Assembly (NCBI GenBank): GCA_965203555.1
Contig: CBDBCY010000004.1
Span: 1,088,001 to 1,152,000 of the forward strand
Origin: Acidimicrobiia bacterium
GTDB lineage: Bacteria > Actinomycetota > Acidimicrobiia > Spongiisociales > ZC4RG35
DNA length: 64,000 bases
Direction: 5' to 3'
Positions 26,701 to 64,000 of this stretch are shown here, one piece after another. The first letter of the stretch is position 1. Each line of letters opens with the position of its first letter. The translations under genes and the position numbers were made by a program. The notes beneath the pieces are model-generated. The model did not search any database. It worked only from the letters and a program-made list of their open reading frames with translations, and had not been told where the DNA came from.

Positions 26701-28929
26701 ATTTCGCCGACGATCTCGAGGCGCGCCTAGAGCGGCGCAATCGAGAACTCGACCAAGAACTTGATCTTTCCAACCTGGATCCACCGGTGGGTTTGGTGGT
26801 GTGGGGTGGTGAAATGCTGTGAAGTGCCTCTCTGACCTGGGAGAATAGCTGTTACCAAACACGGCTATTTGCCCTGGCAGAGGAGGCACTTCTTGTGAAA
26901 ATGATAACCAGGTTGGACAGGTTGGAGGTGAGGTTCGACGAGGGGTCGTTGGTCGCAGACGCGGGTCTGCTACTGGCCGGGAGTTTTTTGTCCCGGTTGG
27001 GTGTGGAACAGTTGGTGGACGACACCGTGAACATTCCCGGCAAACAGGGCGGCGCCCGTCCGGGCCGCAAGATACTGTCGTTGGTGGCGTCGATGCTGCT
27101 GGGCGGCACCCATATCGATCATGCCGATCGGCTGCGGTCTGCAGCCACCCGTAGGGTGCTGCCGTTTCGGGTGATGGCCCCTTTTCACGCTGGGAACGTT
27201 TCTTCGTTCTTTCACATGGGGTCATGTCTGCCAGTTGAACAAAGCCTTGGGACTGCTGCTGGCCCGGGTCTGGTCCCAGCCGGGCATCGGCCCGGGCGAC
27301 CGTCCGTTGATTATTGATGTGGACTCCACCATCTGCGAGGTTCACGGCAAGAAAAAGGAAGGCGCCGTCTACGGTCACACCGGTGTGTTGGGATACCATC
27401 CGCTGACGGCGATCGTGTCCGACACCGGCGAGATTGTTCATCATCGCCTGCGGAAAGGATCCTCGCAGAGAGGAAACACCCGGTTCATGGTGGAGACGGT
27501 CAACCGGGTGAGACGGGCCGGAGCGACCGGTACGATCACCGTCCGGGCGGACAAGGGCTTTTGGTCGGGTAAGACCGTGCAGAAACTGGAGTCCATGGGA
27601 GCGGAGTGGTTTATCGGTGTTCGACGATATCCCAACGTTAAACGTGCTATAGAGAACATAGACAAGGACGATTGGGTGGATATCGGCTACACCCCGGACG
27701 GTCAGGCGCAGGTGGCCGAGACCACTATCACCACCAAGATCGACAAAGAAGAACACACCCTGCGGGTGGTGGTCAGACGCACCCGCCTCACCGACCGCCA
27801 ACACCCCCCAGTTGCCGATCTGGTCCGACTGGCGACACCACGCGTTCGCCACCAGCAACCGTGTCCTCGAAGCGGTGGAAGCCGACAGTATGTACCGCCG
27901 TCATGCCTGTGTGGAACTGGGCATCCGCGACCTCAAACACCACGCCGGACTGGCCCACTGTCCATCAGGGCGGTTCTTCGCCAACGCCGCCTGGATGGCC
28001 GCCGCGGTGGCGGCTCACAACCTGTACCGGTGGATCAACCACCACACCGGCGCAACACCGAAGGGAAAGCTCACCTGCGGTCGCACGGTCCGCACCCGCC
28101 TTTTCAACCTGCCCGGAAGAATCGTCAACCACAGCCACAAACTCCTCCTGCGACTACCCACCCGCTGGCCATGGGCACACACCTACCACACCGCTCTCAA
28201 CAGCATCCGCACCCTGCCACAACTCTGCTGAACAACCCCGCCAGCAACCCAAACCCTCTATCAGGACTGCATCACCCCGGCTGCCGCATACCCCAAAAGC
28301 CCCCCACCGGACCGTTCCCACCCCGCAACCCCACCGACAGACCCCGACCACCGTCCAAAGAACAAAACCCGCCCGCCAAAACACCAAAAACAAGCCCGAT
28401 CACACCAACCACACCCACCCAAACCACCCGATCGGTGGATTGAGGTTCCAACCATCCGCCTGTGGTGGTTGGGGGTGCATTGATCATCCCACAGGGATTG
28501 CTCGAAGTTGAGAACCCGACGTTGCCCGTGAACCCGGACAGTCGGGAGGAGATCGACCGGCGAGCGGTAGCAGCAGTGATGGCTGCCGAGCGCCGTCTGA
28601 GCCGAGAGCCGACCGAGATGGAGCATCACAACCCCGGGTACGACATCGAAAGCAAATGCCCCGCCACAGGTGACCTGTACTTCATCGAGGTGAAAGGGCG
28701 GATCGAAGGAGCCGATGCCATAAGCGTCAAGTCTCGGCAGATCCGCCAAGGTCTCAACCATCCGCATCGGTTCATTTTGGCTGTCGTGCAGGTGCCATCC
28801 GACCCCGATCCTGAGCCAGTCGTGCGCTATGTGCGCCATCCATTCAAAGGTGTGACTATGCCCTTCAGCACATATTCGGTCAACCTTCCTCTGAAAGAAC
28901 TGCTAACTCGATCCACGGATCCATCATGA
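23769..28929 (+). pseudogene. SNF2-family helicase with C-terminal DUF3883 (NOV_C) nuclease domain, split by IS1380
   Basis: GGAGG RBS + GTG at 23769. LADDPGAGKT, DEAH, TATP, QRFGRIHRIGQ; C-terminal PGYDIES...FIEVKG. Removing the IS and one TTCCAA restores the frame ELDLSNHPPVVVGGALIIP. Confidence 0.92.
26774..28445 (+). mobile_element. IS1380-family element (transposase about 26896-28231, frameshifted twice)
   Basis: Terminal IRs CCTGGATCCACCG / CGGTGGATTGAGG; TSD TTCCAA at 26768-26773 and 28446-28451; IDVDST, GYHPL, VRADKGF, YRRHACVELGIRDLK, F.ANAAW. Confidence 0.92.
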
Positions 28930-50558: not shown

Positions 50559-53500
50559 TCATCGGGCCCAGAGCCAGTCGAGATCTGAGAAGGCGAGTGC
50601 TCGATTGAAGTTCTGGATGTTGTCGCGGACGTTGAGTATGAGGCATCGGTCATCGCCACCGTTCTTCGGTCCTCTGAGACCTCTGCCGATCATTTGAAAG
50701 TAGAGATTCGGGCTGTACACCGGCCGGGCCACAATGATGGCGCGGGTCTTTGGCGCGTCGAATCCTTCGGTGAATACGCCGTAGTTGACCAGCACCTGGA
50801 GGTTGCCATCACGAAACTCCTGAACGATTCGCCGGCGAGTTGCCGACTCAGTTGCTCCGCTTACCGCTCTTGCAGCGGTTCCTTTCCTATTGAGGAGTGC
50901 TGCAACGGTCTGAGCGTGTTCCACCGATGTTGCGAAGATGAGTGTGGGCCACTCCGGTCGAACGTGCTTCTCATAGGCCCCGATGATGCGTTTGGTGCGT
51001 TCGGCGTCGCTTGCGATACGGTTTTCGGCGCTTTGCGGGAGCCACACTTGAGCGAGCCGTCGTGCTAGTTCCCCTGATCCCCGCCGGAATCTTGACATTA
51101 CTTCCAGTTCTTCTGTGGTGAGTTGGAGGGTGCTGCCTGGGATGGTCTCGTGGTCAACCTGAGCGAGAACTTGCATGGTTTGTAACTCCGTGACCACGAC
51201 TTGAGGATCGCTGTCGTTGAATGCTCCAGTATCAAGACGTCTGTTGCCGTACCGGCGAGTGAGCCTGGCTGTCTCTGGCACATCGCGTCCTCGATACGGT
51301 GTCGCCGTTAGTCCGAGGAGGAACGGCTCGTCCGCTTCTTGATACCGGGTTAGGCCGATCTCCTCCATCACCGAGGTTGAGGTCGGCGCCAGTGACCGGT
51401 GCGCCTCGTCAAAGACCACAAGCTTGAAGTCCTTCAAGAATCGGTATTGACGGCTCTGGCTGGATAGCCTGGCATTGAGAGTCTGGACCGTGGCAACGAT
51501 TACGTGTTGGTGGTCCGTTGGCAATGGACTGCTCTGCCCGCCCCAGAATCGGGAGATGCGAAGCTGCTGTGCCTCGGCACCTACGCTCGCCCACACCTGC
51601 CGCCAGGCCTCCACCGCTTGCTCGCACAATTCATCGCGGTCCGCCACCCAAAGAACACCTCCGCGAAATCTGTCCTCCCGGATAGCCTCAACAATTGCCT
51701 GGACTGCGACCCGGGTTTTTCCGGATCCTGTCGGCAGGCTGATCATTCCACGCCCGTTTGCGCTTGCACCGCGGTTGTTGCCCAGCATGGCACGAACGTT
51801 GTTGGCAATTGTGCTCTGGTAGCTGTGCAGCTCCGGGAGATAGGGAGGGCCATTGATCTCTAGGTATGGGGAACGGCGCCTGTTTCGTTCTCCGGCCCAC
51901 TCGCTGGAGAACCCGAGGGAGCGCACAAAATCCACTGCCCTTGCCGACGCAGCCCACTGCACAGGTGGGTCGAGGTGACTTAGAACCTGTCTGTATTGCC
52001 TGAGGGCATCAGTATGGTAGGTCGCAATCGCGGCTTCCGCTATGTCTATCCCCGTTAGTATGTCACCGTCGATTTCCAACACTCTTATGAGCGAGCGAGG
52101 GAGCCCCCTGCGTAGGTACTCCTCGCCCACTGCGGCCAGGAGGCGTTCCGCATCTGTAGACAGTTGCCGTATGGCCTTGCGCCGCTCCTCGACTTCACCG
52201 GGCGTGCGGCGTTGCAAAATGGCCTCCATTTCCTGGTCGGTCACTCCAAGCTCCATTTCCTGGATGACCAGCCTCAGGGCTTCACCCTGATTATCTTCAA
52301 TGTTGTTCGCCAGGTAGACGTTGGGCACCTGGAAGATGGTGGGGCGCTCCTGGCCAGCTACGAGGATGCGCTCACACAGCACCAAGTGACTTGATCTGCG
52401 ACGAGGGGGAAGGTACTCCTTCAATCCGGGCCAGGCATCGGTTAGTGGGATGGGATCCTGTTCACCAAGAATCTCCGGCATCGGATCCGACAGGTCAAAG
52501 AGTGCCTTAATTCGGTCAGCGGAAGGATGCTGTAGCAGTGCCAACAAGGCCGACGCGTTCACTGGATGCTGCCCGAGAGCATCGGCGAAGGGCACGATGT
52601 CACCATAGACCCGAAGTCGACCATGCATCCGCAGCATGTGAGCAGTGAGTGATTGGAATGGGATTTTGGGGTACGAGTCCCGGTTTTGACCCTTGTGCCA
52701 CATGAGCCACGGTTTGTATAACGCGTCCGTTCTCAACGCAGCGTCGGTGTAAAGCGCCCTGGCTTCATCGGAAAGCAGAGTAAGGACGTTCACCGGACCT
52801 ACACCGGTGCTCGACGTGAATCCCAGGTATCCCTTTCGCGGGTTTTTGTGCGGCACTCGTTGCCGATACAGCTTCGCACAGAGTTGCTCATAGTGTCCGT
52901 AGCCTGGTTCGTGCGATAGGCAGTGCTGTTCTTGCGGCTTGTCTGATACGCCCAGAAGCCGAAGCAACGCCTCATCTCTCTCATGGAACTCCGTGTCCAC
53001 GGCAACCTCGGTGTCGCGGCTACCGTCGTCGGGAACGATGGCACCAGGCATCAACACGGAGTGCAGGGGACGCCACTCGCCAGCTTTGGTTCGAACACGA
53101 ATGCTTGTGTTCCAACCGCCATGCTCCTCTATGACGTTGTGAGCATTCTGGACCCCTATTTTGCGAGAGGCCGCCCAGAATCTTCGATTGAGGGTGCCAT
53201 CTGCCTTGCCGGGGAGTCCCATTACTTCCGCGGCGACTTGTCTGAAAAGGCTCTCTCGCGACGGAGTCCTCAGCCCCAGTTCTCTCAACGCTGCCAGTGT
53301 CTTGCGGTCCGAAACCAAATCCGGATGGACGTAGGAACGGCGGTCTTCAAGTGTATTGACCACTAACTCGTTAGGCAGGAAGAGGGAGACAGGATCGGCA
53401 GACCGCCAACTGTTGTCCGCCGTCAGCACGATGTTCCCCAAAGCAGACTTCGTTCGAATCTCCTCGGGGATGAGAACGGCGGTTTGGATCGCTGCCATGG

Positions 53501-55043
53501 ATGCCTGGACCTTCTCAGATTGTTCGGAGTTTTCTACAAGCGACTCCAACCATTGTGCGATAGTTGCTCTATCGATTCCCCAGAACCGTCCCCGCGGTTC
53601 GCCATCGGGATCAGAGAGCCGATCCACTGCTGCAATCCTGTTACGGGTCAAAGCGCTGTGGTGAACCCAATCGGCAGGGCGGCCCGGGTGAGATGTCCAC
53701 CGCTTGAAAGCGGCTTCATTCTTTTGTGTCCTCGGGGTCAGTTGCCTCGGCGGAAGAGAAATCTCCTGGGCAACGCGTAATTGTCCATCCTGGTCGGGAA
53801 CAATCTCACTTCGGTAAAGACGCCTGAACAGATGTTTGCGGAGTCGGGCGGCCTGAGCGGGATCTCCCCACTCCCGTCGGCGGGGCAAAGCGTCCAGATG
53901 CCGAGCTGGGTCGACTGCAGTCGCCAGTTCCGGCAAGGCCTCGGCGATCATGTCAGCAGCGGCCTCGATCAACTCATTGTTGTACGGTCCTGGCAATAGG
54001 TTCTGACGATCCTCGTTGGTCTTCCAAGGCGCATTCAAGATGCCCGCCACGAGACTCGCGGTCTTGGTTGGAAAGAACGCCCAGAACATACCGGGAAGAT
54101 CGAGACGGTCAACTGGTGCGGCCCACCACATTGGCACAGCGAGGCGGTCGTCTCCGGGCCTACGGTCTGCGCGAGCTCTGGCAGATAAGCGATGTGTGCG
54201 CCGCAGGAGTTTCCACTGGCTGATCGCATCACCATCGGCGAGAAGGTATTCTTCTCCAACCCGCTGCACCTCCAGCGGACGGTTGATCTCAGACGAGTTG
54301 CTTGTCAATATGAGACGTCCAACATGAGAAGCAAACAGGAGAAACTCCGCCGGGAACTCTCGCATCTGCTGAGCGAGATCATCGTGCCCTCCTGGCAGAA
54401 GGGGTAGCCGGACTATGTTCGCCGCCCAACTCATAAGATCCTGAAGGACTTCGTCCCCCTCCCAACAATCGGCAGGGTCGATGGGCTCGGCGAGACGCAG
54501 GACAGGGTAGTCAGGAACTCCGGGCACTATCCTCTCGATGCGCTTCCGCGAGGCATGGCCATCGAATCGGAAGGAACCGGACCGGCTGAAGAACTCCGGC
54601 TTATCGCTCACACCGAGAACAGACTTGAATCCGAGGCCGAAAGTGCCGATCTGACCAGTGCCCCGTTTAGGAGACAAGCGGGAGAACATCAGTGATGTGA
54701 CACCCTCCTGATCAATCGGTTCTCCGTTGTCGGCGCAATAGAGGCTGGTTGCTGTCAGCCGAATCTCGATGCGCCCACCATCCCGCTTTGGAGGTCGGCC
54801 AGCCTGCTCGGCGGTATTAGCAGCCGGCCAGAGCGCATCAGCCCCATTCTGCACCAGTTCAAAGAGTTGGCGGTGTTGGTAGCCGCCGACCGCTGTGTCC
54901 TGTTCAATGCTTATGTGCTCCGCCACCAGATGCGGCTGCTCGGCATAAGCAGCAAGGTACCCCGCACAAACCTTGGCGATGTATCTGCCCAAGGCCCCGT
55001 CTGGCCCGGCCCACTTGTCCCGCATCAAGACTCTAAGACTCAC
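50559..55043 (-). CDS. Sacsin-like GHKL/HSP90 ATPase fused to an SF2 (DEAH/ResIII-like) helicase
   Basis: LFELVQNGADA, DNG, IGTFGLGFKSV; LPTGSGKT, DEAH, GLTAT, EGFDAP, QMIGRGLR. Confidence 0.88.
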   Translation of the reverse strand: MSLRVLMRDKWAGPDGALGRYIAKVCAGYLAAYAEQPHLVAEHISIEQDTAVGGYQHRQLFELVQNGADALWPAANTAEQAGRPPKRDGGRIEIRLTATSLYCADNGEPIDQEGVTSLMFSRLSPKRGTGQIGTFGLGFKSVLGVSDKPEFFSRSGSFRFDGHASRKRIERIVPGVPDYPVLRLAEPIDPADCWEGDEVLQDLMSWAANIVRLPLLPGGHDDLAQQMREFPAEFLLFASHVGRLILTSNSSEINRPLEVQRVGEEYLLADGDAISQWKLLRRTHRLSARARADRRPGDDRLAVPMWWAAPVDRLDLPGMFWAFFPTKTASLVAGILNAPWKTNEDRQNLLPGPYNNELIEAAADMIAEALPELATAVDPARHLDALPRRREWGDPAQAARLRKHLFRRLYRSEIVPDQDGQLRVAQEISLPPRQLTPRTQKNEAAFKRWTSHPGRPADWVHHSALTRNRIAAVDRLSDPDGEPRGRFWGIDRATIAQWLESLVENSEQSEKVQASMAAIQTAVLIPEEIRTKSALGNIVLTADNSWRSADPVSLFLPNELVVNTLEDRRSYVHPDLVSDRKTLAALRELGLRTPSRESLFRQVAAEVMGLPGKADGTLNRRFWAASRKIGVQNAHNVIEEHGGWNTSIRVRTKAGEWRPLHSVLMPGAIVPDDGSRDTEVAVDTEFHERDEALLRLLGVSDKPQEQHCLSHEPGYGHYEQLCAKLYRQRVPHKNPRKGYLGFTSSTGVGPVNVLTLLSDEARALYTDAALRTDALYKPWLMWHKGQNRDSYPKIPFQSLTAHMLRMHGRLRVYGDIVPFADALGQHPVNASALLALLQHPSADRIKALFDLSDPMPEILGEQDPIPLTDAWPGLKEYLPPRRRSSHLVLCERILVAGQERPTIFQVPNVYLANNIEDNQGEALRLVIQEMELGVTDQEMEAILQRRTPGEVEERRKAIRQLSTDAERLLAAVGEEYLRRGLPRSLIRVLEIDGDILTGIDIAEAAIATYHTDALRQYRQVLSHLDPPVQWAASARAVDFVRSLGFSSEWAGERNRRRSPYLEINGPPYLPELHSYQSTIANNVRAMLGNNRGASANGRGMISLPTGSGKTRVAVQAIVEAIREDRFRGGVLWVADRDELCEQAVEAWRQVWASVGAEAQQLRISRFWGGQSSPLPTDHQHVIVATVQTLNARLSSQSRQYRFLKDFKLVVFDEAHRSLAPTSTSVMEEIGLTRYQEADEPFLLGLTATPYRGRDVPETARLTRRYGNRRLDTGAFNDSDPQVVVTELQTMQVLAQVDHETIPGSTLQLTTEELEVMSRFRRGSGELARRLAQVWLPQSAENRIASDAERTKRIIGAYEKHVRPEWPTLIFATSVEHAQTVAALLNRKGTAARAVSGATESATRRRIVQEFRDGNLQVLVNYGVFTEGFDAPKTRAIIVARPVYSPNLYFQMIGRGLRGPKNGGDDRCLILNVRDNIQNFNRALAFSDLDWLWAR

Positions 55044-55434: not shown

Positions 55435-57888
55435 TTACTGGAAGGCTTCTACGATGGCCAGCAACCGATCGGCCTGGTCTTTGATCCATACGGCGGCTTC
55501 CGGCCAGGCGTCTTGGTCGTCTCGATCCCATGCCCTGCTCACCGAGAGGCTCCTCCCGTCCTCGCTCTCGGATGCCTCATTCCCTTCCAGTTCCTGGTCG
55601 TACATGGACTCACGGATAGTTCGGGAGTATTGGAGCATTCGCTGGGCTCGGCCACGGGTCTTGGAAGGAGGAGCCCTGAGATACAGACCGATCGACTGGC
55701 TCTTCAGACTGACACCGAGCATGTCGCCCAACTCGTTCAACTTCGGCGTCCAGATTATCCAGCTGCGCCACCCGTCACGCTGGCCATACAGGCCTCCCGT
55801 CTCTGCTTTCAGGCGTCTCCAGAATGCCTTCCTCATGTCCGGTGTTTGCTGAAACTCCACCTCGACCAGTATTCCACATCGCTCACCCATCTCTCGACAG
55901 GCGGCGGCGCTAGCAGAGAAATCACCCCGGTAGGGATACAGAACGTAGGAATCGTGGCCGGGTACCGCTCGCATCGTAAGGGTTCCGGCCTTGCTGCCTG
56001 GTGGATACTGGCTGGCTAGTTGCAGGTTCGACGAGACTGCCTCCCCACGTAAACGCTCCGGGCTGTCAGGGTCGTGGCTGAGTAGCGCTCCGGCGACGTT
56101 CAACACCATTTGACTCGCATACCCCTCCTCTTGCCAGTCGCCTCCTCCCATACGCCATCGCATCCTCCACTTGTTGCCCGATGGTGTCTGCGGGCTCGCA
56201 TCAGGGTCGGACCATGGCCAGAGCGTCAGCGCCCGGTCTGCCAGCTCCTCGGCCCGCCGCTCCAGTACCGCTTCATCCCAAGCGTCCTCGTCGGCGATAT
56301 GCCTAGTCAGCAGCACGCCGCTGCGCTCCATGATCGCGCGCTTTTCAGCGAAGGGCTTTGCCCCCATTTCCGCGTTCACCCCGCTCAAGGTGAGGTTGGC
56401 GAGTTGGTGGCAGTAGGACTTGTGTATCCGCTCCGCTTCCTCTCCCAACTCCGACCTCCACTCATCGGTCAGTTTTCGAGGCATCACATGCTCAACCGTC
56501 AGATCTCTTCGAGCGGGAGCATCGCCCCTCTGCTCCGATTCCATCATGGCACACAAGACCGCCTTCGTGGCACGAGTTGCGCCTCCGCCATACGCCTTTC
56601 GAGTTCGGATCCCCGCCCGAACCATTTCATCGTCGGGAACTTCCACGCGCTGATTGCGTAGCCTTCGTATCCGTTCCAGCCAGAACTCGGCCGGATCTTC
56701 TCCACTGCTCGGACCGGACCGTCGGCGGGCAAGCTCGGCGAATGCTTTGTTCATCCCAGCCATCGGGCGGTCTGATAACCAAAAACGCGTAATCCAGGTC
56801 CCGATCCCCGCGAGTGCCTTGGTCAGAGTTGCCTCCGTCCACTTAACCTCGACTGCCGTAGCGGCTTCATGGAGCAGGCGCAGAGTCAGGGGCCGATGGG
56901 TATCAAAGCCCATGTACCGCAAATGACGAAGCTCCTCTTCCACACCCTGGTCCCGATGCTCCCTTGCACCTATCAGGACACCGTAATGTGCAGCAAGGTC
57001 GGCCAGATCGGCTATGAGCGCCCGTCGATCCTCTCCGCTGCCGCTCCGCACGGCCCACCGCCGCAGATCCTCGTAGGCCCGATTGACACCTCGCAACTCA
57101 CCGGTCTTCCACCGCAGGAAGTCGCGGAGGAAGATGTCGATCGGATCGGTCGAGTGCTCGGCATTCAACGAGGCTTCTATCCGCTTCCAATAGTGATCGT
57201 GAAGTTCCTGCTGTTCCGCATCCTCCAAACCCATGAGCAGCCAATTCTTGAGCTTCTCGCTCTCGGTGAGGGGCCGCCCCGTGGCATTCAGGCTCTCGAA
57301 TATCTGTTGAGGATCGTCATGGTCCCCAAGGCCGATACTTACCACTCGAAGTCGTTCCAGTCCCTTCAGAAGCAATCCGATGTCATTGCGTTGGACCAGC
57401 CTTCGAGCGATCCTCCAAGCCTGGGCAACCGCGCCCGGACCGCTCGGGTCACCGTCGAGGCCCGACCGGTACTCATCCTCATCACCGTCCTGCAGCCGTA
57501 GTTTGCGGAACCGGTCAGGACTCTTCCCAGGATTCGTAAGGCGATCGTCCATAATCGTCCGCCCGGTCCAAGCTCCGCATTGCCCGTCGGGACCAAGTTC
57601 TCTAGCTATGCAGGCGAGCAGGATACTGACTGTGGTGAGCCTCTGCTGCCCGTCCACGACACGATGGACCATCACCGGCTGCACAGCCCGTGACTCCGGG
57701 AAAGTCAGGAGCGTGCCTCCATAATGAGCCGGCTCAGAACTCAACTTCGACTGTGACACGGCCAAGAGGTCATCCACCAGCCTTTCGATGTCGGGCTGAC
57801 CCCAGCAATAGCGTCGCTGCCAGCGCGGCACTACGTATTGCACCTGTGAGTTGAACAACTCCAAGAAAGCGATGTGTCTTGTGTCCAT
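55435..57888 (-). CDS. gmrSD: GmrSD-family type IV restriction enzyme (DUF262 + DUF1524 HNH) with a C-terminal extension
   Basis: VPRWQRRYCW, VDGQQRLTT, IFESLNATG, TVEHVMP...LANLTL..N; about 250 extra C-terminal residues (DUF4268-like end). Confidence 0.88.
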   Translation of the reverse strand: MDTRHIAFLELFNSQVQYVVPRWQRRYCWGQPDIERLVDDLLAVSQSKLSSEPAHYGGTLLTFPESRAVQPVMVHRVVDGQQRLTTVSILLACIARELGPDGQCGAWTGRTIMDDRLTNPGKSPDRFRKLRLQDGDEDEYRSGLDGDPSGPGAVAQAWRIARRLVQRNDIGLLLKGLERLRVVSIGLGDHDDPQQIFESLNATGRPLTESEKLKNWLLMGLEDAEQQELHDHYWKRIEASLNAEHSTDPIDIFLRDFLRWKTGELRGVNRAYEDLRRWAVRSGSGEDRRALIADLADLAAHYGVLIGAREHRDQGVEEELRHLRYMGFDTHRPLTLRLLHEAATAVEVKWTEATLTKALAGIGTWITRFWLSDRPMAGMNKAFAELARRRSGPSSGEDPAEFWLERIRRLRNQRVEVPDDEMVRAGIRTRKAYGGGATRATKAVLCAMMESEQRGDAPARRDLTVEHVMPRKLTDEWRSELGEEAERIHKSYCHQLANLTLSGVNAEMGAKPFAEKRAIMERSGVLLTRHIADEDAWDEAVLERRAEELADRALTLWPWSDPDASPQTPSGNKWRMRWRMGGGDWQEEGYASQMVLNVAGALLSHDPDSPERLRGEAVSSNLQLASQYPPGSKAGTLTMRAVPGHDSYVLYPYRGDFSASAAACREMGERCGILVEVEFQQTPDMRKAFWRRLKAETGGLYGQRDGWRSWIIWTPKLNELGDMLGVSLKSQSIGLYLRAPPSKTRGRAQRMLQYSRTIRESMYDQELEGNEASESEDGRSLSVSRAWDRDDQDAWPEAAVWIKDQADRLLAIVEAFQ

Positions 57889-58368
57889 GGGGATGCCTAG
57901 TTGGACGGTCAGCTACCGTTGGTCCGAAACCTGATACGGCAGGCTACAGAATATAACAAACCGTCTCGCCGTCCGGTCCGACTGCGCCAACCAGGCGAAC
58001 ATCCTTCCACTCCCGGACCCCCGGCCCTTGACCTCTCCCTCTTCTTACCTAAATCGCTTCCCCACGTGGAACTGCTTGATATTTGCGAAGGTGGCAGAAT
58101 TCTCTGGCTTTTTCAGGTGACCTGCAGGGTGCAGGACTGAGAACCGTAGGGACGGTTTCCCGCCGCTTCTCCCCTCCAGTGAGGCAAGTCCCCACCTTAC
58201 ACTGTTTGGCGTGAGGCTTAATACCTACCATGGCGGTTTCTCCAAGGGTCCCACTTGTCCTGGGAATACCGAGATTGCCGGTTAGTCAAGTACCAGAACC
58301 GCTTATACTCATGGCTAGTTGGCCGGGACCCCAAGAAAGGAGTCATTCTTCAAGGCTTGGGCGTGAAG

Positions 58369-58469
58369 TGGTGCCCGGAGTGGGACTCGAACCCACACGG
58401 TATGCAGGGCATTCTGCAGGGACCTCAGCATTGCCAGTGCTTAGCGTCTGCCATTTCCGCCACCCGGGC
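58369..58469 (-). tRNA. Atypical 101-nt class II tRNA: Leu-type body, GGC (Ala) anticodon, CCA encoded
   Basis: Minus strand: GCCCGGG TG GCG GAAATGGCAGA CGC T AAGCA CTGGCAA TGCTG [29-nt variable arm] GTGGG TTCGAGT CCCAC TCCGGGC ACCA. Confidence 0.8.
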
Positions 58470-58476
58470 AATCATT

Positions 58477-58504
58477 ATGGGCCACCCTGAGTGGGGTGGC
58501 CCAT
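58477..58504. promoter_or_regulatory. Perfect 11-bp inverted repeat in the tRNA leader
   Basis: ATGGGCCACCC-TGAGTG-GGGTGGCCCAT, 7 nt upstream of the tRNA 5' end. Confidence 0.6.
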
Positions 58505-58542
58505 GCCTCCATTTGGGACCAGAAAACCCAGTGTAGCGGGGT

Positions 58543-58571
58543 AACTTACACGGTTGCTATTTCGAGGGCAA
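58543..58571 (-). promoter_or_regulatory. Candidate sigma70-type promoter for the tRNA
   Basis: Minus strand TTGCCC-N17-TAAGTT, about 70 nt upstream of the tRNA. Confidence 0.5.
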
Positions 58572-58827
58572 CTGCCGTGGCGTTTTCTTTACCTGAAGAT
58601 AGAGATCGGCGCAGGTTGGCGCGCCTTGGCGAAAAGCAGGGTCAGTCCAAGACTACCAGGGTGATGACGACATCGCGAGCGCCCACGCGACCTTGCCCCT
58701 GGCAGGTTTGCGGTCCGCTTTATGGAGCCAACCATCACCCTGACTAGCCACTTTGCAATCTCTGGCATAAAGAGATCCATGCCTTATAATGGTTCTCGTC
58801 GCATTTCAGTGTGGACAGGAGAAAGAG

Positions 58828-59382
58828 ATGGTTTCATCAGGAGATCGCCAGGTTCCTTTCTGGAAGTCCCCCGTATCATGTCTTGCCCTAGTGGTTGGGT
58901 TAGTAGCATCAATGATCGGCTTAGTCAGTAGAGACTGGGGTTTGTGGTTCATTCCTTTGTACTGGTTGATTCCGTTGTGTCTACTCCCAGGTTTTTTTCG
59001 TTGGTGTGCGTCTTTTATGGAGAATCGCTCTCCGACAGTGATCACCACGGCGGCCTTCGTAGGAGGTGCTGCTTTGATTGGCATTACCTCTCTCAGTTCT
59101 GTTCCTGATACCGCTCTAGGTGACTTTGTCGCTGAGTGGAACCTGTTCGATTATCTTTTCAGATTCAGGCTTTCCGTAATGATCTTGACAATGGCACTTG
59201 CAGTTTGGACTCTGTTGAGTAGCTTCATTTACGAAATAACTAACACAAGGAGAGGTCCTATCCGCGCAGTAGCTGCTACTCTTAGCTTCACATCCATCAT
59301 GCAGTTGCCCGTATTTTTCGTCTTTACAGCACACCAGACAATACAAATTATTCGTCTTACGATCGATGTTGGCGGTCAATAA
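58828..59382 (+). CDS. Hypothetical membrane protein
   Basis: AGGAG RBS; about five hydrophobic segments; low GC. Confidence 0.7.
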   Translation: MVSSGDRQVPFWKSPVSCLALVVGLVASMIGLVSRDWGLWFIPLYWLIPLCLLPGFFRWCASFMENRSPTVITTAAFVGGAALIGITSLSSVPDTALGDFVAEWNLFDYLFRFRLSVMILTMALAVWTLLSSFIYEITNTRRGPIRAVAATLSFTSIMQLPVFFVFTAHQTIQIIRLTIDVGGQ

Positions 59383-59649
59383 GTAATGAATCCTTGGGCT
59401 AACTGAATCGCTCTGGGTACATTAATCCCTCCGAAAAACACAGGGCGACTCCGTTATCAACAGACGGACGGGTCCGTCTTCGATTCGTCAGATGCAGAGA
59501 TGTTGTTATCATTCTGCCACTGAGTAAGAGGGTGCGCGGGTAGGGACATCGCGATTGTCGCCCTCCAGCGCTCTGGACCAGGTCTGTTCCGCAAAATACC
59601 TGGTCAACATCATGAACCGTCAAACCCCCACAGAGTACGTTTTGGCAGG

Positions 59650-60228
59650 TCAGCACCTACCCGCGCGGCCTCTAAGTCGGCGTATTCCTACCAGAGTCAC
59701 GGCAACAGCCACCTTGAGTAAGGGCTTGGGTGTGCCACCCGTGGCGCCGTTTGGCTCCATGACATATCGCCAATCCACAAAGTTATCGTTGGCGATGCTT
59801 AAGATGCGTTCTACTGTTTCTGTCTCCGCATAATGGCTCCAATAGTCAGGCAGAGCCTCTAGTTGATGCTGTATCTTGTCTTGATTTACGGAACATAGCC
59901 TTCTGAACAGGTCAGAAAGCTTATGCACCTGCGGCGGCTTTGTTTGGGGCTTCGTTAGTGCAATGAGCGTCTTAATAGCCCTTTCTGTAATAAAACTGGT
60001 CACCACGACACAAGTGGTAGCTATTCCTAACTCTGTAAGTGCCTCTTTCTCACCCGCGATACGGATTTGCATGAGCGGCTCATGAGCCTGGATAAGAAGA
60101 CGGGCCGCCTCTATCTCTCCACAGAGCGATTTCAAGGCCAATGGTATATTCCATGATGCGTTCGCGCTTGGGCCACCCAGGTACACCGGCCCAGAAACTG
60201 CTTGCAAAACCGTTTGCTCCATGATCAT
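59650..60228 (-). CDS. HEPN-like domain protein
   Basis: AAGGAG RBS; TERAIKTL...HKLSDLF...FVDWRY pattern. Confidence 0.65.
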   Translation of the reverse strand: MIMEQTVLQAVSGPVYLGGPSANASWNIPLALKSLCGEIEAARLLIQAHEPLMQIRIAGEKEALTELGIATTCVVVTSFITERAIKTLIALTKPQTKPPQVHKLSDLFRRLCSVNQDKIQHQLEALPDYWSHYAETETVERILSIANDNFVDWRYVMEPNGATGGTPKPLLKVAVAVTLVGIRRLRGRAGRC

Positions 60229-60701
60229 GAGGATTGCTCCTTACTAGGCGAGATCCTGGAGATCCACATTCCTGTTAGACCACCTCATCTCAACCCATTG
60301 GTTGATGATATCCCTTTGATCGCGGAGGCTGCTCAGCTATGACTTTGATTGCATTCTCCAGTAAACGCAGGCGATGGAGAATAGTCGTCGTCGGTTTCTC
60401 GAAGGGGTAGGTGTGCAGCGGATGGAGAGGCAGACCGCCCCCCGAACCTCACCAGCATCGTCTTCATCGCCGAATTGGCCGAGCAGCGTGTTTTCGCCCA
60501 ACCATCATAGCCGAGCGGAGACGCCGAGGAAATCCTCCACGACGCCTGCTCACGCGTTCCAAAGTTAAGTGGAGCGGCACAGCATTGTCCGACGGTACTA
60601 CACCCACTTGTCGGCGTTTAGCCCTTACCAGATGCGTGTTACGACCTCGGCCCGCCACTCTCCCCGCGTTCGAGTCCTCTGCTCGTCCCAATCGCTCTCC
60701 T

Positions 60702-61607
60702 GAAAACCATGGCGGTGGCTGCGGCCGCTTCGGTGCCTTTCTCGTCGACGATCACCTTGGCGCCGTGGAGAGCGGCCGTGATCACGATCGGGGGGCAATG
60801 TTCTCAAAAGGCGCTCTGGCGCAGAACCCCCGAGGGCAGAGCCACTCTACAGGTCGGTGGGCGGCAGGGTCTGTTCCACTTGGGCATGGTGAGATCGACA
60901 TAGCCCTGCTGGGAAATGACTCCCAGTCCGGCCAGGTCCTGTGAATTGAGGGACTCCTCGACTGCGGCCAAGCCGCCGGGGTCGTGGGGCACGATCAGCC
61001 ACATGGCCAACCGGCCACCCTGGTAGGCAAGCTCGACCGCGTCGGCGCGGTCGAGTCGGACGTAGCGACGATGCACCGGTTCGCGGTCGTGCATGAACGG
61101 CACTGTCACCACGCCCTGGTCGCCGGTGGTGAACCGGCCATCGGTGGTCAACTCGGGGAGGAACGGCTCGATCCAGTCGGCCTTCAGGTACACCGTGTTC
61201 ACCAGGACCAGTTCCTGGCGTACCACCACCTGCTCGGTGACGATGGTGGGAATGAGTTCCCGGGTGGCGTCCGATATCCATTCGTTGATGGCCTCAGCCG
61301 CGGGTGCGCCTACATCGAGGTCGACCGGATGGGCCGCCGCTCCGTAATGGGACCCAGCGGTCTCTAGGAACGCGGGCAGTGGAGAGAACTCGTCGTCGGG
61401 AAAGAGACGGTTGGCCACCTCCAGGGTGGTCGGTTCCACCGAGGCCTCCGCCAGCATCAGATCGACCGCATTGGCCGCAGGATGGAGATCGACCTCAGGG
61501 AATCCGAAGATCTCATCCAGCACCGCCCCCGTGTCTCCGGATGCGCCGGCACGGCTGAGACTGAAGGCCAGACCGAGGCTCACCGGGCTAGAGACCGCGT
61601 TGCCCAA
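60702..61607 (-). pseudogene. Serpin copy 3 (frameshifted; truncated within the reactive centre loop)
   Basis: Close paralogue of 44430..45464; homology stops just after EAAAATAM. Confidence 0.85.
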
Positions 61608-62450: not shown

Positions 62451-62575
62451 GGCCCTGCGCGTTTTTTTGGGATTGGTGGTCTGGCTGGTGGGTGGTGGGG
62501 TTCATGTTAGGAGGAGTGCTCGGGCGGCGTAGTTGTGGTGGTTGGTGAAGCCGTGGGCGGTGCGTCGGAGGGTTT
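62451..62575 (-). mobile_element. 3' end of an ISL3-family element, itself interrupted by IS110
   Basis: Minus-strand QTLRRTAHGFTNHHNYAARALLLT* (ISL3 C-terminal signature); GGCCCTGCGCG terminus. Confidence 0.75.
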
Positions 62576-64000
62576 GATGCTCCTATGTTTGTCAAATTGG
62601 GGTTTGGGGGGTGGTGAGCCAGTGTTGGTATTGGGTGGCGAGTTGGTGGTTGTGGTAGAGGCCTCGTTCGAGTTGTGAGAGGCGGTTTGGGTGGGTTTGG
62701 AGGGCTATGGCGGCGCGAGCCAGAGTTGTTTGGGTTTTTTGGCGTAGGCAGCGTAGATCGCTGCCGTTGGGTGTTTGGTTCGGGTTGGTCAGCAGTCGGT
62801 AGACCTGGCGGGCGATGTAGCGTTTCAGGCAGCGGATGATCTCTTTGCGGGTTTTGCCTTCGGCTTGTCGCCGTTGGGCGTATTCGATGGTGCGGGGGTC
62901 GGTGCGTAGCCGTACTGTGGCTATACGCCAGAGGGCGTTGTTGGCTTGGCGGTCGCCGCCGCGGTTGAGTCGGTGACGCACTATGCGTCCCGACGACGCT
63001 TGGACGGGGCTTGCGCCGCAGAGAGCGGCGAAAGACGCTTCTGTGCGCATGCGGTGGGGGTTGTCCCCGGCGGTGACCAGCAGCGCGGCGGCGGTTTCGG
63101 GGCCGATCCCACCGGCAGCCAGCAGCGCCGGGTTGGCCCGGGCGCAGAGCTGTTTGATTTCGGTGTCGAGTTGTTGGATCTCCCAGGTAAGTGCTTGGTA
63201 TCGGCGGGCCAACAGACGCAACGCTTTCTTGGCATAGGCGATATTGGTCCGGTTCGCGCCGGGACGATAGGCGGCGCAGACCTTCACCCGGGCTTTCGGG
63301 GAAAGGCTCCCGAGTTGGTGTTTGACCTGGTCGGGAGCGGTGACCACCAGAGCGTGCAGCTGGTTGATGGTCTGGGTGCGGGCCTTGGCGGCCGAACGGC
63401 GGACCACCCGAAGCATCCTGATCGCTTCGACTGGTCCGTCGCCGCTTTTGGGTGTCCCGGTGGCCTGTCCGCTCAAAACAGCCCGGGCCGCGGCCTGAGC
63501 GTCGGTGGCGTCGGTCTTGCCGAACCGGCGGCGCAGTTGACGGTTGGGACGGTTCACTTCCACTACCTCGACACCGATTCTCACCAGGTAGCGGGTCAGG
63601 CCGGCGCCGTAGCTGCCGGTGCCCTCTATTCCGACCTGGGCAACGTTGCCGTGTGACCCCAGCCAGTTGCCCAGTTGTTCATAACCGGCTGTGTCGGTTC
63701 CGAACGATGCCGTGCCCAACACCCGACCGGTGGTATCCACCACCGCCGCCACATGAACATCGCGGTGGGTGTCCACCCCACCGAACACATCAACCCGATC
63801 TGACATTCGTCTCTTCTCCTCATTTAGAATCGGTTCTGTTCTCCCTGACCCGAAAAGGCGGTGGACGGACCACTCAAGTGGCAAGAGCAAGGCTCCTATC
63901 AGGTCACAGCCGCCCTGTCGGGAGAGCGCCGCCCCCAGGCCGGAAGCAGGCCGACAAATCAAACCAAAGGCACAAACAGGCCAGGTTAGGTTGGAGTCAG
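62576..64000 (-). mobile_element. IS110-family element (left end beyond the window); recombinase 62592..63806 with C-terminal HTH extension
   Basis: GVDTH, GIEGTGSYG, KTDATDA (DEDD), PVQASSG (catalytic Ser), HRLNRGGDRQAN; right end TTGACAAACATAGGAGCATC. Confidence 0.92.
63850..64000 (-). ncRNA. Candidate IS110 bridge RNA (partial)
   Basis: Non-coding end upstream of the recombinase, with 8-nt matches to the element's right end (ATAGGAGC) and to the insertion junction (GGTTTGAT). Confidence 0.7.

Follow-up and report, generated by a model that had tools for sequence, protein, structure and literature searches.

The 64,000-nucleotide stretch analysed here, called the window, comes from an Acidimicrobiia bacterium (contig CBDBCY010000004.1, positions 1,088,001 to 1,152,000) and carries on its minus strand, at 58369–58469, a tRNA gene, referred to below as tRNA X, with the body of a leucine tRNA and the alanine anticodon GGC. 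We identify tRNA X as an intact member of a rare, recurrent bacterial class in which a leucine-tRNA chassis bears non-leucine anticodons. The reading we prefer is that tRNA X would be leucylated and would read GCC and GCU, acting as a low-level Ala-to-Leu decoder; judged from sequence, we regard this reading as about evenly poised. The tRNA calls come from Rfam RF00005 (gathering score 29), ARAGORN and direct reading of the sequence.

Nucleotide 1 of tRNA X lies at 58469, A73 at 58372 and an encoded CCA at 58371–58369, giving 98 nt through A73 and 101 nt in total. The Leu-type cloverleaf described by the initial annotation, with a GGC anticodon, A73, C3–G70 and a 29-nt variable arm, can be read directly from the sequence; the annotation had left the strand, minus, unstated. 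The acceptor stem GCCCGGG/UCCGGGC has 7 bp, including G7·U66, and its 3:70 pair is C–G instead of the alanine mark G3:U70. The D-arm, GCGG-AAAUGGCAG-ACGC, has the features of Leu tRNAs (a 3-bp stem plus G13·A22, A14, A15 and G18G19; motif GCGGAAnUGGnAGACGC), and the identical motif occurs in the genome's four genuine Leu tRNAs. With the T-arm GUGGG-UUCGAGU-CCCAC and the discriminator A73, the molecule has the 7/5 cloverleaf and long variable arm of a class II tRNA-Leu, and not the class I body with a short variable loop of a tRNA-Ala. The minimum-free-energy fold is the cloverleaf.

The departures from an ordinary Leu tRNA lie in the middle of the molecule. The anticodon stem, AAGCA/UGCUG, consists of 4 bp and an A27·G43 mismatch. 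Its loop, C32-U33-G34-G35-C36-A37-A38 (58431–58437, minus strand), holds GGC at 58435–58433 in place of a leucine anticodon (NAG or YAA) and would read GCC and GCU; the loop flanks, C-U...A-A, equal those of the CUUAAAA loop of the genome's own Leu(UAA). The variable region (58397–58425, minus strand) is 29 nt long, compared to 14–18 nt in the ordinary Leu tRNAs measured. It reads GG(U)-ccc-UGCAG-aaugcc-CUGCA-u-(A)CC-GU, that is, a GG/CC base, an internal loop and a 5-bp helix UGCAG/CUGCA closed by a 6-nt loop. A 12-nt tandem duplication in this arm (CCCUGCA twice) was considered and dropped, as the two copies are the two strands of the variable-arm hairpin. RF00005 matches the gene with 44.5 bits over model positions 1–71, and is the only Rfam model to match at this site, where neither a group I intron nor another RNA family was detected. 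An ARAGORN run, one of the checks proposed in the initial annotation, was carried out and reported no tRNA in the window, tRNA X included.

The 11-bp hairpin that had been noted in the leader is present at 58504–58477 (minus strand). Its perfect stem, AUGGGCCACCC/GGGUGGCCCAU, pairs 58504–58494 with 58487–58477 around a 6-nt loop and ends 7 nt before nucleotide 1. Further upstream, the annotated promoter candidate TTGCCC-N17-TAAGTT (58543–58571, minus strand; TTGCCC at 58571–58566, TAAGTT at 58548–58543) exists as a string; it is weak, is unconfirmed as part of the unit and escapes a sigma-70 consensus scan.

Relatives of tRNA X were searched for with the seed pattern AGACGC-N6-YUGGCR-N(10-40)-GGUUCRANUCC, which fixes the Leu D-arm hexamer, a YU-GGC-R loop and the T-loop, in two sets, genome_contigs (one genome per species) and viral_contigs. 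The pattern matched 35 loci in the former and 9 in the latter. Fifteen of the 35 genomic and three of the nine viral matches have a correctly spaced acceptor of 6–7 bp, a T-stem with at least four of five pairs and a discriminator A, none of which is imposed by the pattern; one of the three viral matches (L049) is doubtful, with a poor anticodon stem. The normal-length genes of this family (84–86 nt) come from six Gemmatimonadota genomes, one Obscuribacterales and one Dehalococcoidia, and the long ones (95–100 nt) from metagenome-assembled genomes (MAGs) of Gammaproteobacteria and one Paracoccaceae MAG. All 21 delimited family tRNAs (20 loci) lie above the Rfam tRNA threshold, at 39.4–58.3 bits, so the score of tRNA X is typical for the family. 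Neither G3:U70 nor a G:U pair at 4:69 occurs in any of the 19 aligned members. ARAGORN misses the six long gammaproteobacterial copies and labels the normal-length genes "tRNA-Ala".

The remaining seed matches are shifted-register Gln tRNAs, class I tRNAs at two Streptomyces loci and matches due to chance. Each of the two Streptomyces loci (L025 7795–7838 in Streptomyces kutzneri and L046 6391–6434 in S. virginiae) contains a tRNA-like gene of ~79 nt that is class I in its body and has the loop UU-GGC-AA, called Ala(ggc) by ARAGORN in the L025 copy; these genes have U33 and G34, unlike the published tRNA-ProA (A33, A34, anticodon AGC). A locus of a Planctomycetota MAG (L014 3992–4055) holds two adjacent tRNA-like 3' modules with a T-arm, GCCA ends and a 26-nt insert, and has no proper Leu core (0.51–0.53 identity to tRNA X).

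A re-scan with the anticodon left free covered 15 genomes, the 14 carriers and the own genome of tRNA X. It added eight non-Leu genes, five with CGC (G424, G829, G830, G833 and G837), two with GGA (G829 and G831) and one with GGC (G829), and a ninth paralogue, with CAC, was found by BLAST as the third copy of a tandem array in G831. The anticodons of the family are thus GGC and CGC (Ala), GGA (Ser) and CAC (Val). The homologue search proposed in the initial annotation, for a conserved GGC with covarying stems, has in this sense been positive, as several phyla proved to have Ala anticodons on Leu bodies whose stems have changed in a compensatory way. In viral_contigs the same pattern frame occurs with the Leu anticodon CAG in more than 115 contigs, compared to 9 for GGC and 2 for CGC, and one of the viral CGC genes, L082, does not differ from the Obscuribacterales CGC gene within the matched stretch. 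This Leu-type CGC tRNA (L082 7042–7117; G837:C219:60205–60249) has a variable region of only ~9 nt and a terminator-like hairpin before it. An anticodon-blind pattern for the variable arm gave six matches in metagenome_contigs, all of them chance matches within GC-rich coding sequence that lacks both a T-loop and acceptor pairing, and none in viral_contigs; these two scans carry no weight either way.

Within the family we define a long-arm subgroup by a non-Leu anticodon on a Leu body, a variable region of 26–31 nt and a leader hairpin. It comprises 15 genes in 7 genomes, with 9 GGC, 3 CGC, 2 GGA and 1 CAC anticodons, and in most members the variable arm carries the helix UGCAG/CUGCA on a GG/CC base. 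tRNA X shares the non-Leu anticodon, this helix on its GG/CC base and the leader hairpin. When six gammaproteobacterial long-arm copies are aligned, the variable-arm helix is co-positioned, with an identical sequence in five and one change in L044; in the Paracoccaceae copy (L034) it is GCUG/CAGC. No Leu anticodon on a long-arm body was seen in the anticodon-free re-scans of the 15 genomes. The 23 ordinary Leu tRNAs matched by the same pattern give strings of ~49–55 nt, compared to 64–70 nt for the long-arm copies. In the gammaproteobacterial copies the shared block extends from the hairpin to ~100 nt past the tRNA, and BLASTN homology between these copies and tRNA X is limited to the tRNA, at 65–72% identity.

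Two genomes carry several long-arm genes. One gammaproteobacterial MAG (G829) has five copies, on contigs C163, C235, C236, C290 and C363, with GGA, three times GGC, and CGC. The array in G831 (L079, G831:C207, 1–1940; also L021) consists of three long-arm tRNAs in tandem with a period of ~260 nt, bearing GGC, GGA and CAC, with the same 11-bp hairpin before each. Its third copy, that with CAC, has a 2-nt deletion in the T-loop, adjoins a scaffold gap and falls below the Rfam threshold.

The leader hairpin is a recurrent feature of the subgroup. It is found in a matching position in all 11 long-arm copies of 98–100 nt, tRNA X included, as a perfect GC-rich stem of 7–12 bp that ends 4–9 nt before nucleotide 1, and at least four unrelated stem sequences are represented. 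The 95-nt Paracoccaceae copy L034 lacks it, the normal-length GGC and CGC genes are mostly without it, and a stem of at least 7 bp at this position is seen in just 2 of the 14 ordinary Leu tRNAs from these data. A likeness between the leaders of tRNA X and L020 seen by eye was not recovered by sensitive BLASTN and was discarded.

Covariation was counted in an alignment of tRNA X and seven long-arm members (A1), over the cloverleaf and the variable-arm helix. In this alignment 95.8% of the cells are paired, compared to 32–47% in slid controls, and both sides have changed in 9 of the 27 pairs, including four of the five in the anticodon stem. None of 500 shuffles reaches any of five pairing measures. 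From these counts we infer that the structure of the long-arm tRNAs is under selection.

The core of tRNA X points closer to home. Its acceptor, D- and T-arms have an identity of 0.94 to the Leu(UAA) of the same-genus locus L002 and of 0.92 to L008, and of 0.90 both to the own genome's Leu(UAA) (C4:735106–735190) and to L010; the core identity is 0.80 to Leu(GAG) and 0.75–0.78 to the other long-arm copies. Because of the core identity of 0.90–0.94, a conclusion that holds without L010, and the loop flanks C-U...A-A, tRNA X resembles a Leu(UAA) chassis of local origin to which the three family marks have been added. A parallel case is the CGC gene of G833, which has exactly the variable arm of that genome's Leu(CAG). 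The marks may have come to be shared by modular transfer, by gene conversion by host Leu genes or by convergence on a common partner. The initial annotation had instead considered a remodelled or decaying tRNA-Leu(GAG), or a two-conformation RNA, from a relic CU-GAG-GU loop. That string does exist, at the junction of the anticodon stem and the variable arm, and is absent from all seven other long-arm members aligned. We read it as a coincidence peculiar to tRNA X, and the core, closer to Leu(UAA) than to Leu(GAG), speaks against both proposals.

tRNA X has no close counterpart among its relatives. The middle part of the gene has no match in 400 other genomes of its class, and the Leu-bodied GGC/CGC pattern is likewise absent from these 400; forty closer relatives contain ordinary Leu tRNAs only, with a best full-length match of 73%. 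The long-arm pattern was also not found in 400 other genomes of the order of G424.

The host has a conventional decoding set beside tRNA X. Its genome encodes tRNA-Leu with CAA, GAG, UAA and CAG and tRNA-Ala with GGC, UGC and CGC, the class I Ala(GGC) lying at C4:2594688–2594762. Canonical class I tRNA-Ala(GGC) is present in this genome and in four of the five carriers tested, and the fragmented MAG G424 has no match to the exact class I Ala(GGC) pattern. tRNA-Leu(UAG) was not found by ARAGORN though CUA makes up 0.28% of the codons in long open reading frames (ORFs); the assembly is 95% complete, and the gene may be unassembled. The idea that tRNA X is this missing Leu(UAG) with an insertion was rejected, since no fold gives a UAG loop and the core is of UAA type. 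ARAGORN further calls a tRNA-His with anticodon AUG (C4:628250–628327) and a 71-nt second tRNA-Trp(CCA) (C4:1485674–1485744), neither of which is among the 45 Rfam matches. Counted over 674,956 codons in ORFs of 400 aa or more, GCC ranks first with 4.79% and GCU accounts for 1.31%, together 6.1%.

Bacterial leucyl-tRNA synthetase (LeuRS) recognises A73 and D-loop and tertiary features, and not the anticodon. The annotation had relied on this indifference to the anticodon, for which there is experimental backing in yeast in the available text of PMC11028032. Each of the five genomes tested has one strong LeuRS match. A second, weak match per genome (20–30 bits, in a frame of ~870–940 aa) is taken as another class I synthetase, an assignment that is unchecked. 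Domain scans of the neighbourhoods found no synthetase-like gene near tRNA X or at the other loci.

In the scheme that we propose, tRNA X would be transcribed with its structured leader and matured by RNase P, and the mature tRNA would be leucylated by the host's single LeuRS. On the ribosome, the leucylated tRNA would compete with the canonical tRNA-Ala(GGC) for GCC and GCU, which it would read through G34. Proteins throughout the cell would then contain leucine in place of some alanines, at a low and probably regulated level. The activity of tRNA X would have to be low or gated because GCC is the commonest codon, and the leader hairpin and oversized variable arm may be conserved devices that limit or gate the mature, active tRNA. 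Possible benefits to the cell or the island include stress diversification, an addiction or abortive-infection module, or interference with invaders. The interpretation given in the initial annotation is thereby supported in part, with charging, decoding and the suggested abortive-effector or decoy roles standing as proposals. A bolder and rather improbable extension treats the long-arm genes as mobile modules that encode a "toxic tRNA" within defence islands. The leader hairpin and enlarged arm would keep the tRNAs in the state of inactive precursors until phage attack or loss of the island released them; leucylated by the host LeuRS, they would flood the commonest Ala, Val and Ser codons with Leu, in a tRNA-effector form of abortive infection or addiction.

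Several points weigh against a role of tRNA X in decoding. Efficient insertion of Leu at GCC, the commonest codon, should be very harmful. Transcription, processing, charging and decoding, for tRNA X and for the family, are predictions from sequence, and a sigma-70 consensus scan calls no promoter-like site on the minus strand, TTGCCC-N17-TAAGTT included. A variable arm of 29–31 nt and a hairpin so close to the site of RNase P cleavage are not usual in functional tRNAs, and these features might just as well indicate an RNA without a decoding role. tRNA X scores lowest among the genome's 45 Rfam tRNA matches and has just four pairs in its anticodon stem. Its cloverleaf is no more stable than those of shuffled sequences (z –0.37); the fold energy being ordinary, structure alone is therefore not the evidence. 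tRNA X occurs in 1 of 401 genomes of the class, which means that purifying selection on tRNA X itself cannot be shown, and the common UGCAG/CUGCA helix and the host-like core point to different origins. As for the family, GGC, AGACGC and the T-loop are fixed by the seed, so that their constancy among seed matches holds by construction, and the anticodon spectrum rests on just the nine paralogues found with the anticodon free.

The setting of tRNA X is strain-specific DNA, since five complete genomes of the same genus match the window from 44 to 64 kb solely at insertion sequence (IS) elements and a repeat of ~125 bp. This repeat, at 62451–62576 between two transposase genes, has many copies (80–93% identity) in the same-genus genomes and may be related to miniature inverted-repeat transposable elements or be an IS end. 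The G+C content is 0.50–0.61 from ~18 kb to at least 62 kb of the window (0.64 in the 2-kb bin at 44–46 kb), compared to 0.62 for the genome and 0.65–0.67 for the left flank. The low G+C content and the neighbouring genes, matched in Pfam and PADLOC, bear out the annotated defence-island setting. Downstream of tRNA X on the same strand, after a gap of 481 nt, lies a gene for an 817-aa GmrSD-type (type IV restriction-like) defence enzyme (55435–57888, minus strand; Pfam GmrSD_N 6.9e-25 and GmrSD_C 2.3e-20; PADLOC Orf5 1e-97 and HEC-06 5e-48). The gene at 50559–55043 (minus strand) encodes a defence-type protein of 1494 aa that is TmtA-like towards its N-terminus and a ResIII/DEAD helicase towards its C-terminus (Pfam; PADLOC TmtA 2.4e-42 and PbeA 3.7e-23).

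On the upstream side there are small unannotated ORFs, a serpin fragment and two transposase genes. A divergent ORF of 197 aa (58789–59382, plus strand) has no Pfam, PADLOC or NCBIfam match and is directly preceded by a promoter-like site at 58762–58790 (plus strand). This ORF, those at 59650–60228 (minus strand) and 60411–60944 (plus strand) and three small minus-strand ORFs gave no significant match in whichever of Pfam, PADLOC and NCBIfam they were scanned with; the sole weak match among the small ORFs is that of 59399–59656 to PADLOC PDC-M47B (E 0.003). The serpin-domain ORF (267 aa, 60804–61607, minus strand) covers only profile positions 21–267 of 370 and is probably truncated, beside the transposases. 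Within the low-GC island, Rfam also matches Ms_IGR-7, an actinobacterial small RNA, at 26775–26894 (minus strand; 48.3 bits, gathering score 45).

At the other family loci, genes for N6-methylase, Eco57I-like and Type ISP specificity-domain proteins lie beside the tRNA in four gammaproteobacterial cases (L036, L044, L017 and L024), which we count as about one event because these loci are mutually homologous. In addition, L020 has an Lhr helicase gene as a neighbour, L024 one for an rlmE-like FtsJ methyltransferase and L034 an IS1 transposase, and the Gemmatimonadota genes have Ser/Thr kinases nearby. The 12-kb neighbourhood of tRNA X has no protein family in common with the other loci, and the lone BLASTP match with E ≤ 0.01 joins spurious ORFs over the tRNAs. 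A link of long-arm tRNAs to defence genes is suggestive, with roughly two independent cases.

Among the alternatives, the one that survives best, and that we nevertheless rate as unlikely, is that tRNA X is a tRNA-shaped RNA with no part in decoding. It would serve either as a cutting signal for RNase P and RNase Z that sets the ends of neighbouring transcripts, the leader hairpin then capping the 3' end of the upstream fragment, or as a decoy, sensor or regulator directed at proteins that bind tRNAs, for example defence tRNA nucleases. Such a role would fit the hairpin placed directly before the RNase P site in all 11 long-arm copies of 98–100 nt, the conserved ~100-nt downstream block of the gammaproteobacterial copies and the tandem array with its ~260-nt period in one genome. 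The oversized variable arm, with a helix sequence constant in most copies, suggests a protein-binding site, tRNA X adjoins defence genes, and defence nucleases that cut class II tRNAs exist, with Septu reported to cut the variable loop of tRNA-Tyr in the available text of PMC13096335. What speaks against this alternative is the anticodon arm, which is fully canonical (7-nt loop, U33, A37, covarying 5-bp stem). The triplets are few and all legal G34 or C34 sense anticodons, with CGC in three phyla, whereas an RNA valued for its shape only should let the arm drift. For the cutting signal in particular, the upstream gene is divergent at L036, L044 and L017, leaving no co-oriented upstream message to cap, and the next same-strand gene lies 481 nt downstream of tRNA X and not at its 3' end.

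We give little credence to a hidden alanine identity, in which tRNA X would be charged with alanine, or another non-leucine amino acid, without G3:U70 and would be a legitimate spare alanine tRNA. Faithful decoding would abolish the toxicity problem, and the anticodons are mostly those of Ala: 12 of the 15 long-arm genes have GGC or CGC, and the two occur as a pair in Gemmatimonadota (G833) and Obscuribacterales (G837). The identity elements argue the other way, with G3:U70 or G:U at 4:69 in none of the 19 aligned members and a Leu-type D-arm and A73 in all. An alanine identity would also leave the Ser (GGA) and Val (CAC) anticodons on the same chassis unexplained, and there is no extra synthetase-like gene among those found nearby.

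Decay is equally hard to credit. On this account tRNA X is a dying island duplicate of a Leu tRNA gene, with a scrambled middle and an accidental GGC. It is a singleton among its relatives, with the lowest Rfam score of the genome, the A27·G43 mismatch, no call by ARAGORN and no promoter called, in an IS-rich island, all of which speak for decay. Decay should affect all arms, however, and no damage is seen in the acceptor stem, D-arm, T-arm, A73 or CCA, while the altered middle still gives an anticodon arm of the correct size and a clean variable-arm hairpin. The non-Leu anticodon, the UGCAG/CUGCA extension and the leader hairpin recur in distant genomes, and the GAG-like "relic" is not common to the other long-arm members.

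tRNA genes are classic insertion sites of islands. The 3' end of tRNA X faces the island, and some gammaproteobacterial copies lie between core-type genes (Lhr, FtsJ-like methyltransferase) and restriction-modification genes, so that tRNA X might be an attachment (att) site at an island junction, a by-product of recombination into a tRNA-Leu gene. We consider this very improbable. The three tyrosine-recombinase matches of the genome are all away from the window (C4 at 709 kb, C4 at 2.52 Mb and contig C1; the search did not include serine recombinases), and outside other tRNAs the genome contains no second, partial copy of tRNA X longer than 15 nt; for these two reasons we do not read tRNA X as an integration junction. 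In addition, the five complete same-genus genomes show no empty site with tRNA X, and recombination does not explain the new anticodon.

The last alternative concerns the assembly. A 5602-nt contig of the public run X1 equals 57900–58900 with no differences, and X1 is possibly the window's own source sample and so not independent; in run X2, contigs break inside tRNA X and leave 58400–58499 uncovered, and the short pieces at 58365–58399 are T-arms of other organisms' tRNAs; run X3 contributes nothing here. Despite the indel errors that the initial annotation ascribed to the assembly and the break in X2, an assembly error in a normal Leu tRNA gene is scarcely believable as the source of the odd middle, given the X1 contig, perhaps of the same sample, the extra 12–16 nt that form a clean hairpin seen in unrelated assemblies too, and the several substitutions, rather than an indel, needed to restore a normal anticodon.

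Natural tRNAs in which body and anticodon disagree are rare test cases for the rigidity of the genetic code. If the tRNAs of this class are charged and used, as in the decoding scheme proposed above, they would be a bacterial counterpart of the nematode nev-tRNAs and a ready natural system for tolerated or programmed Ala/Ser/Val-to-Leu ambiguity. If they are unused in decoding, they would be tRNA-shaped RNAs of a novel type, with a regulatory or processing role and a link to mobile DNA. ARAGORN misleads annotation in both cases, by skipping the long-arm copies and by labelling the normal-length ones "tRNA-Ala". Bacterial tRNA genes are called uniform in the available text of a 2014 review (PMC4033280). 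Bacterial tRNAs that join a Leu body to an anticodon for Ala, Ser or Val are not described in the literature searched, which did not extend to supplements, where the lists of PMC5389517 and of nev-tRNAs could hold examples.

The closest likeness at the molecular level is to the ordinary Leu(UAA) of the lineage (C4:735106–735190 and L002), with acceptor, D- and T-arms 90–94% identical and the same loop flanks. These tRNAs differ in the UAA anticodon, an unrelated anticodon stem and a variable region of 15–18 nt, and tRNA X adds the leader hairpin, the encoded CCA and the island. A synthetic likeness is provided by the yeast tRNA-Leu anticodon variants of Davey-Young et al. 2024, which, as in tRNA X, join a Leu body to Ala anticodons and, unlike it, are engineered and eukaryotic. 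In the available text of that paper, no anticodon position is a major LeuRS identity element; the Ala anticodons AGC, CGC and UGC on the Leu body cut growth, the range being 35–67% of wild type, and GGC gives no significant defect (PMC11028032).

Among natural systems, the nev-tRNAs are nearest in design. They have class II bodies with Gly or Ile anticodons and are leucylated (PMC3333845, PMC4300185, PMC4033280), and thus, like tRNA X, pair a Leu-like class II body with an anticodon that belongs to a class I amino acid; they serve as a precedent for the decoder reading. According to the available parts of these papers, their leucylation follows from the indifference of LeuRS to the anticodon, their expression is low and their gene copies are multiple. 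They are eukaryotic and restricted to nematodes, and their Gly(CCC) and Ile(UAU) anticodons read mostly rare codons, compared to GCC, GCG, GUG and UCC here, among which is the most frequent codon of a GC-rich genome. As described there, they lack the leader hairpin and the UGCAG/CUGCA extension, and their charging has been shown, whereas tRNA X is known from sequence. By lineage tRNA X is an analogue of the nev-tRNAs and not a member.

Two bacterial systems complete the comparison. The allo-tRNAs (Mukai et al. 2017, PMC5389517) are bacterial or phage-borne, with a long variable arm and varied "wrong" anticodons, some of them polycistronic and possibly linked to toxin–antitoxin systems, and in E. 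coli their expression results in toxic missense suppression. Their identity is that of serine (G73 or U73), with an 8/4 or 9/3 geometry and a Sec-like D-arm, unlike the 7/5 geometry, A73 and Leu D-arm of tRNA X, and the terms tRNALeu, LeuRS and GGC do not occur in the available text of that paper. The tRNA-ProX group (ProA, ProN and ProT) of Streptomyces and Kitasatospora, paired with ProRSx, is given in a 2024 review as an example of a devoted tRNA/synthetase pair for mistranslation in bacteria (PMC11415595). As covered there, it shares with tRNA X a natural bacterial mismatch of body and anticodon, a patchy distribution, a host role described as unknown and, in one case, Ala codons as the target; it differs in its class I proline body, A33, A34 and dedicated synthetase, where tRNA X has a Leu class II body, U33 and G34. 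tRNA X has neither a proline body with A33/A34 nor a dedicated synthetase paralogue alongside, and the five genomes tested have a single strong LeuRS each. The genes described here apparently form an undescribed second bacterial class of body/anticodon mismatch, built on a leucine chassis and found in at least six lineages (host classes or phyla) as well as in viral contigs. Judged from its sequences, this class would need no dedicated synthetase and would target very common codons, and its long-arm subgroup has conserved accessory structures of its own, a leader hairpin and an extended variable arm.

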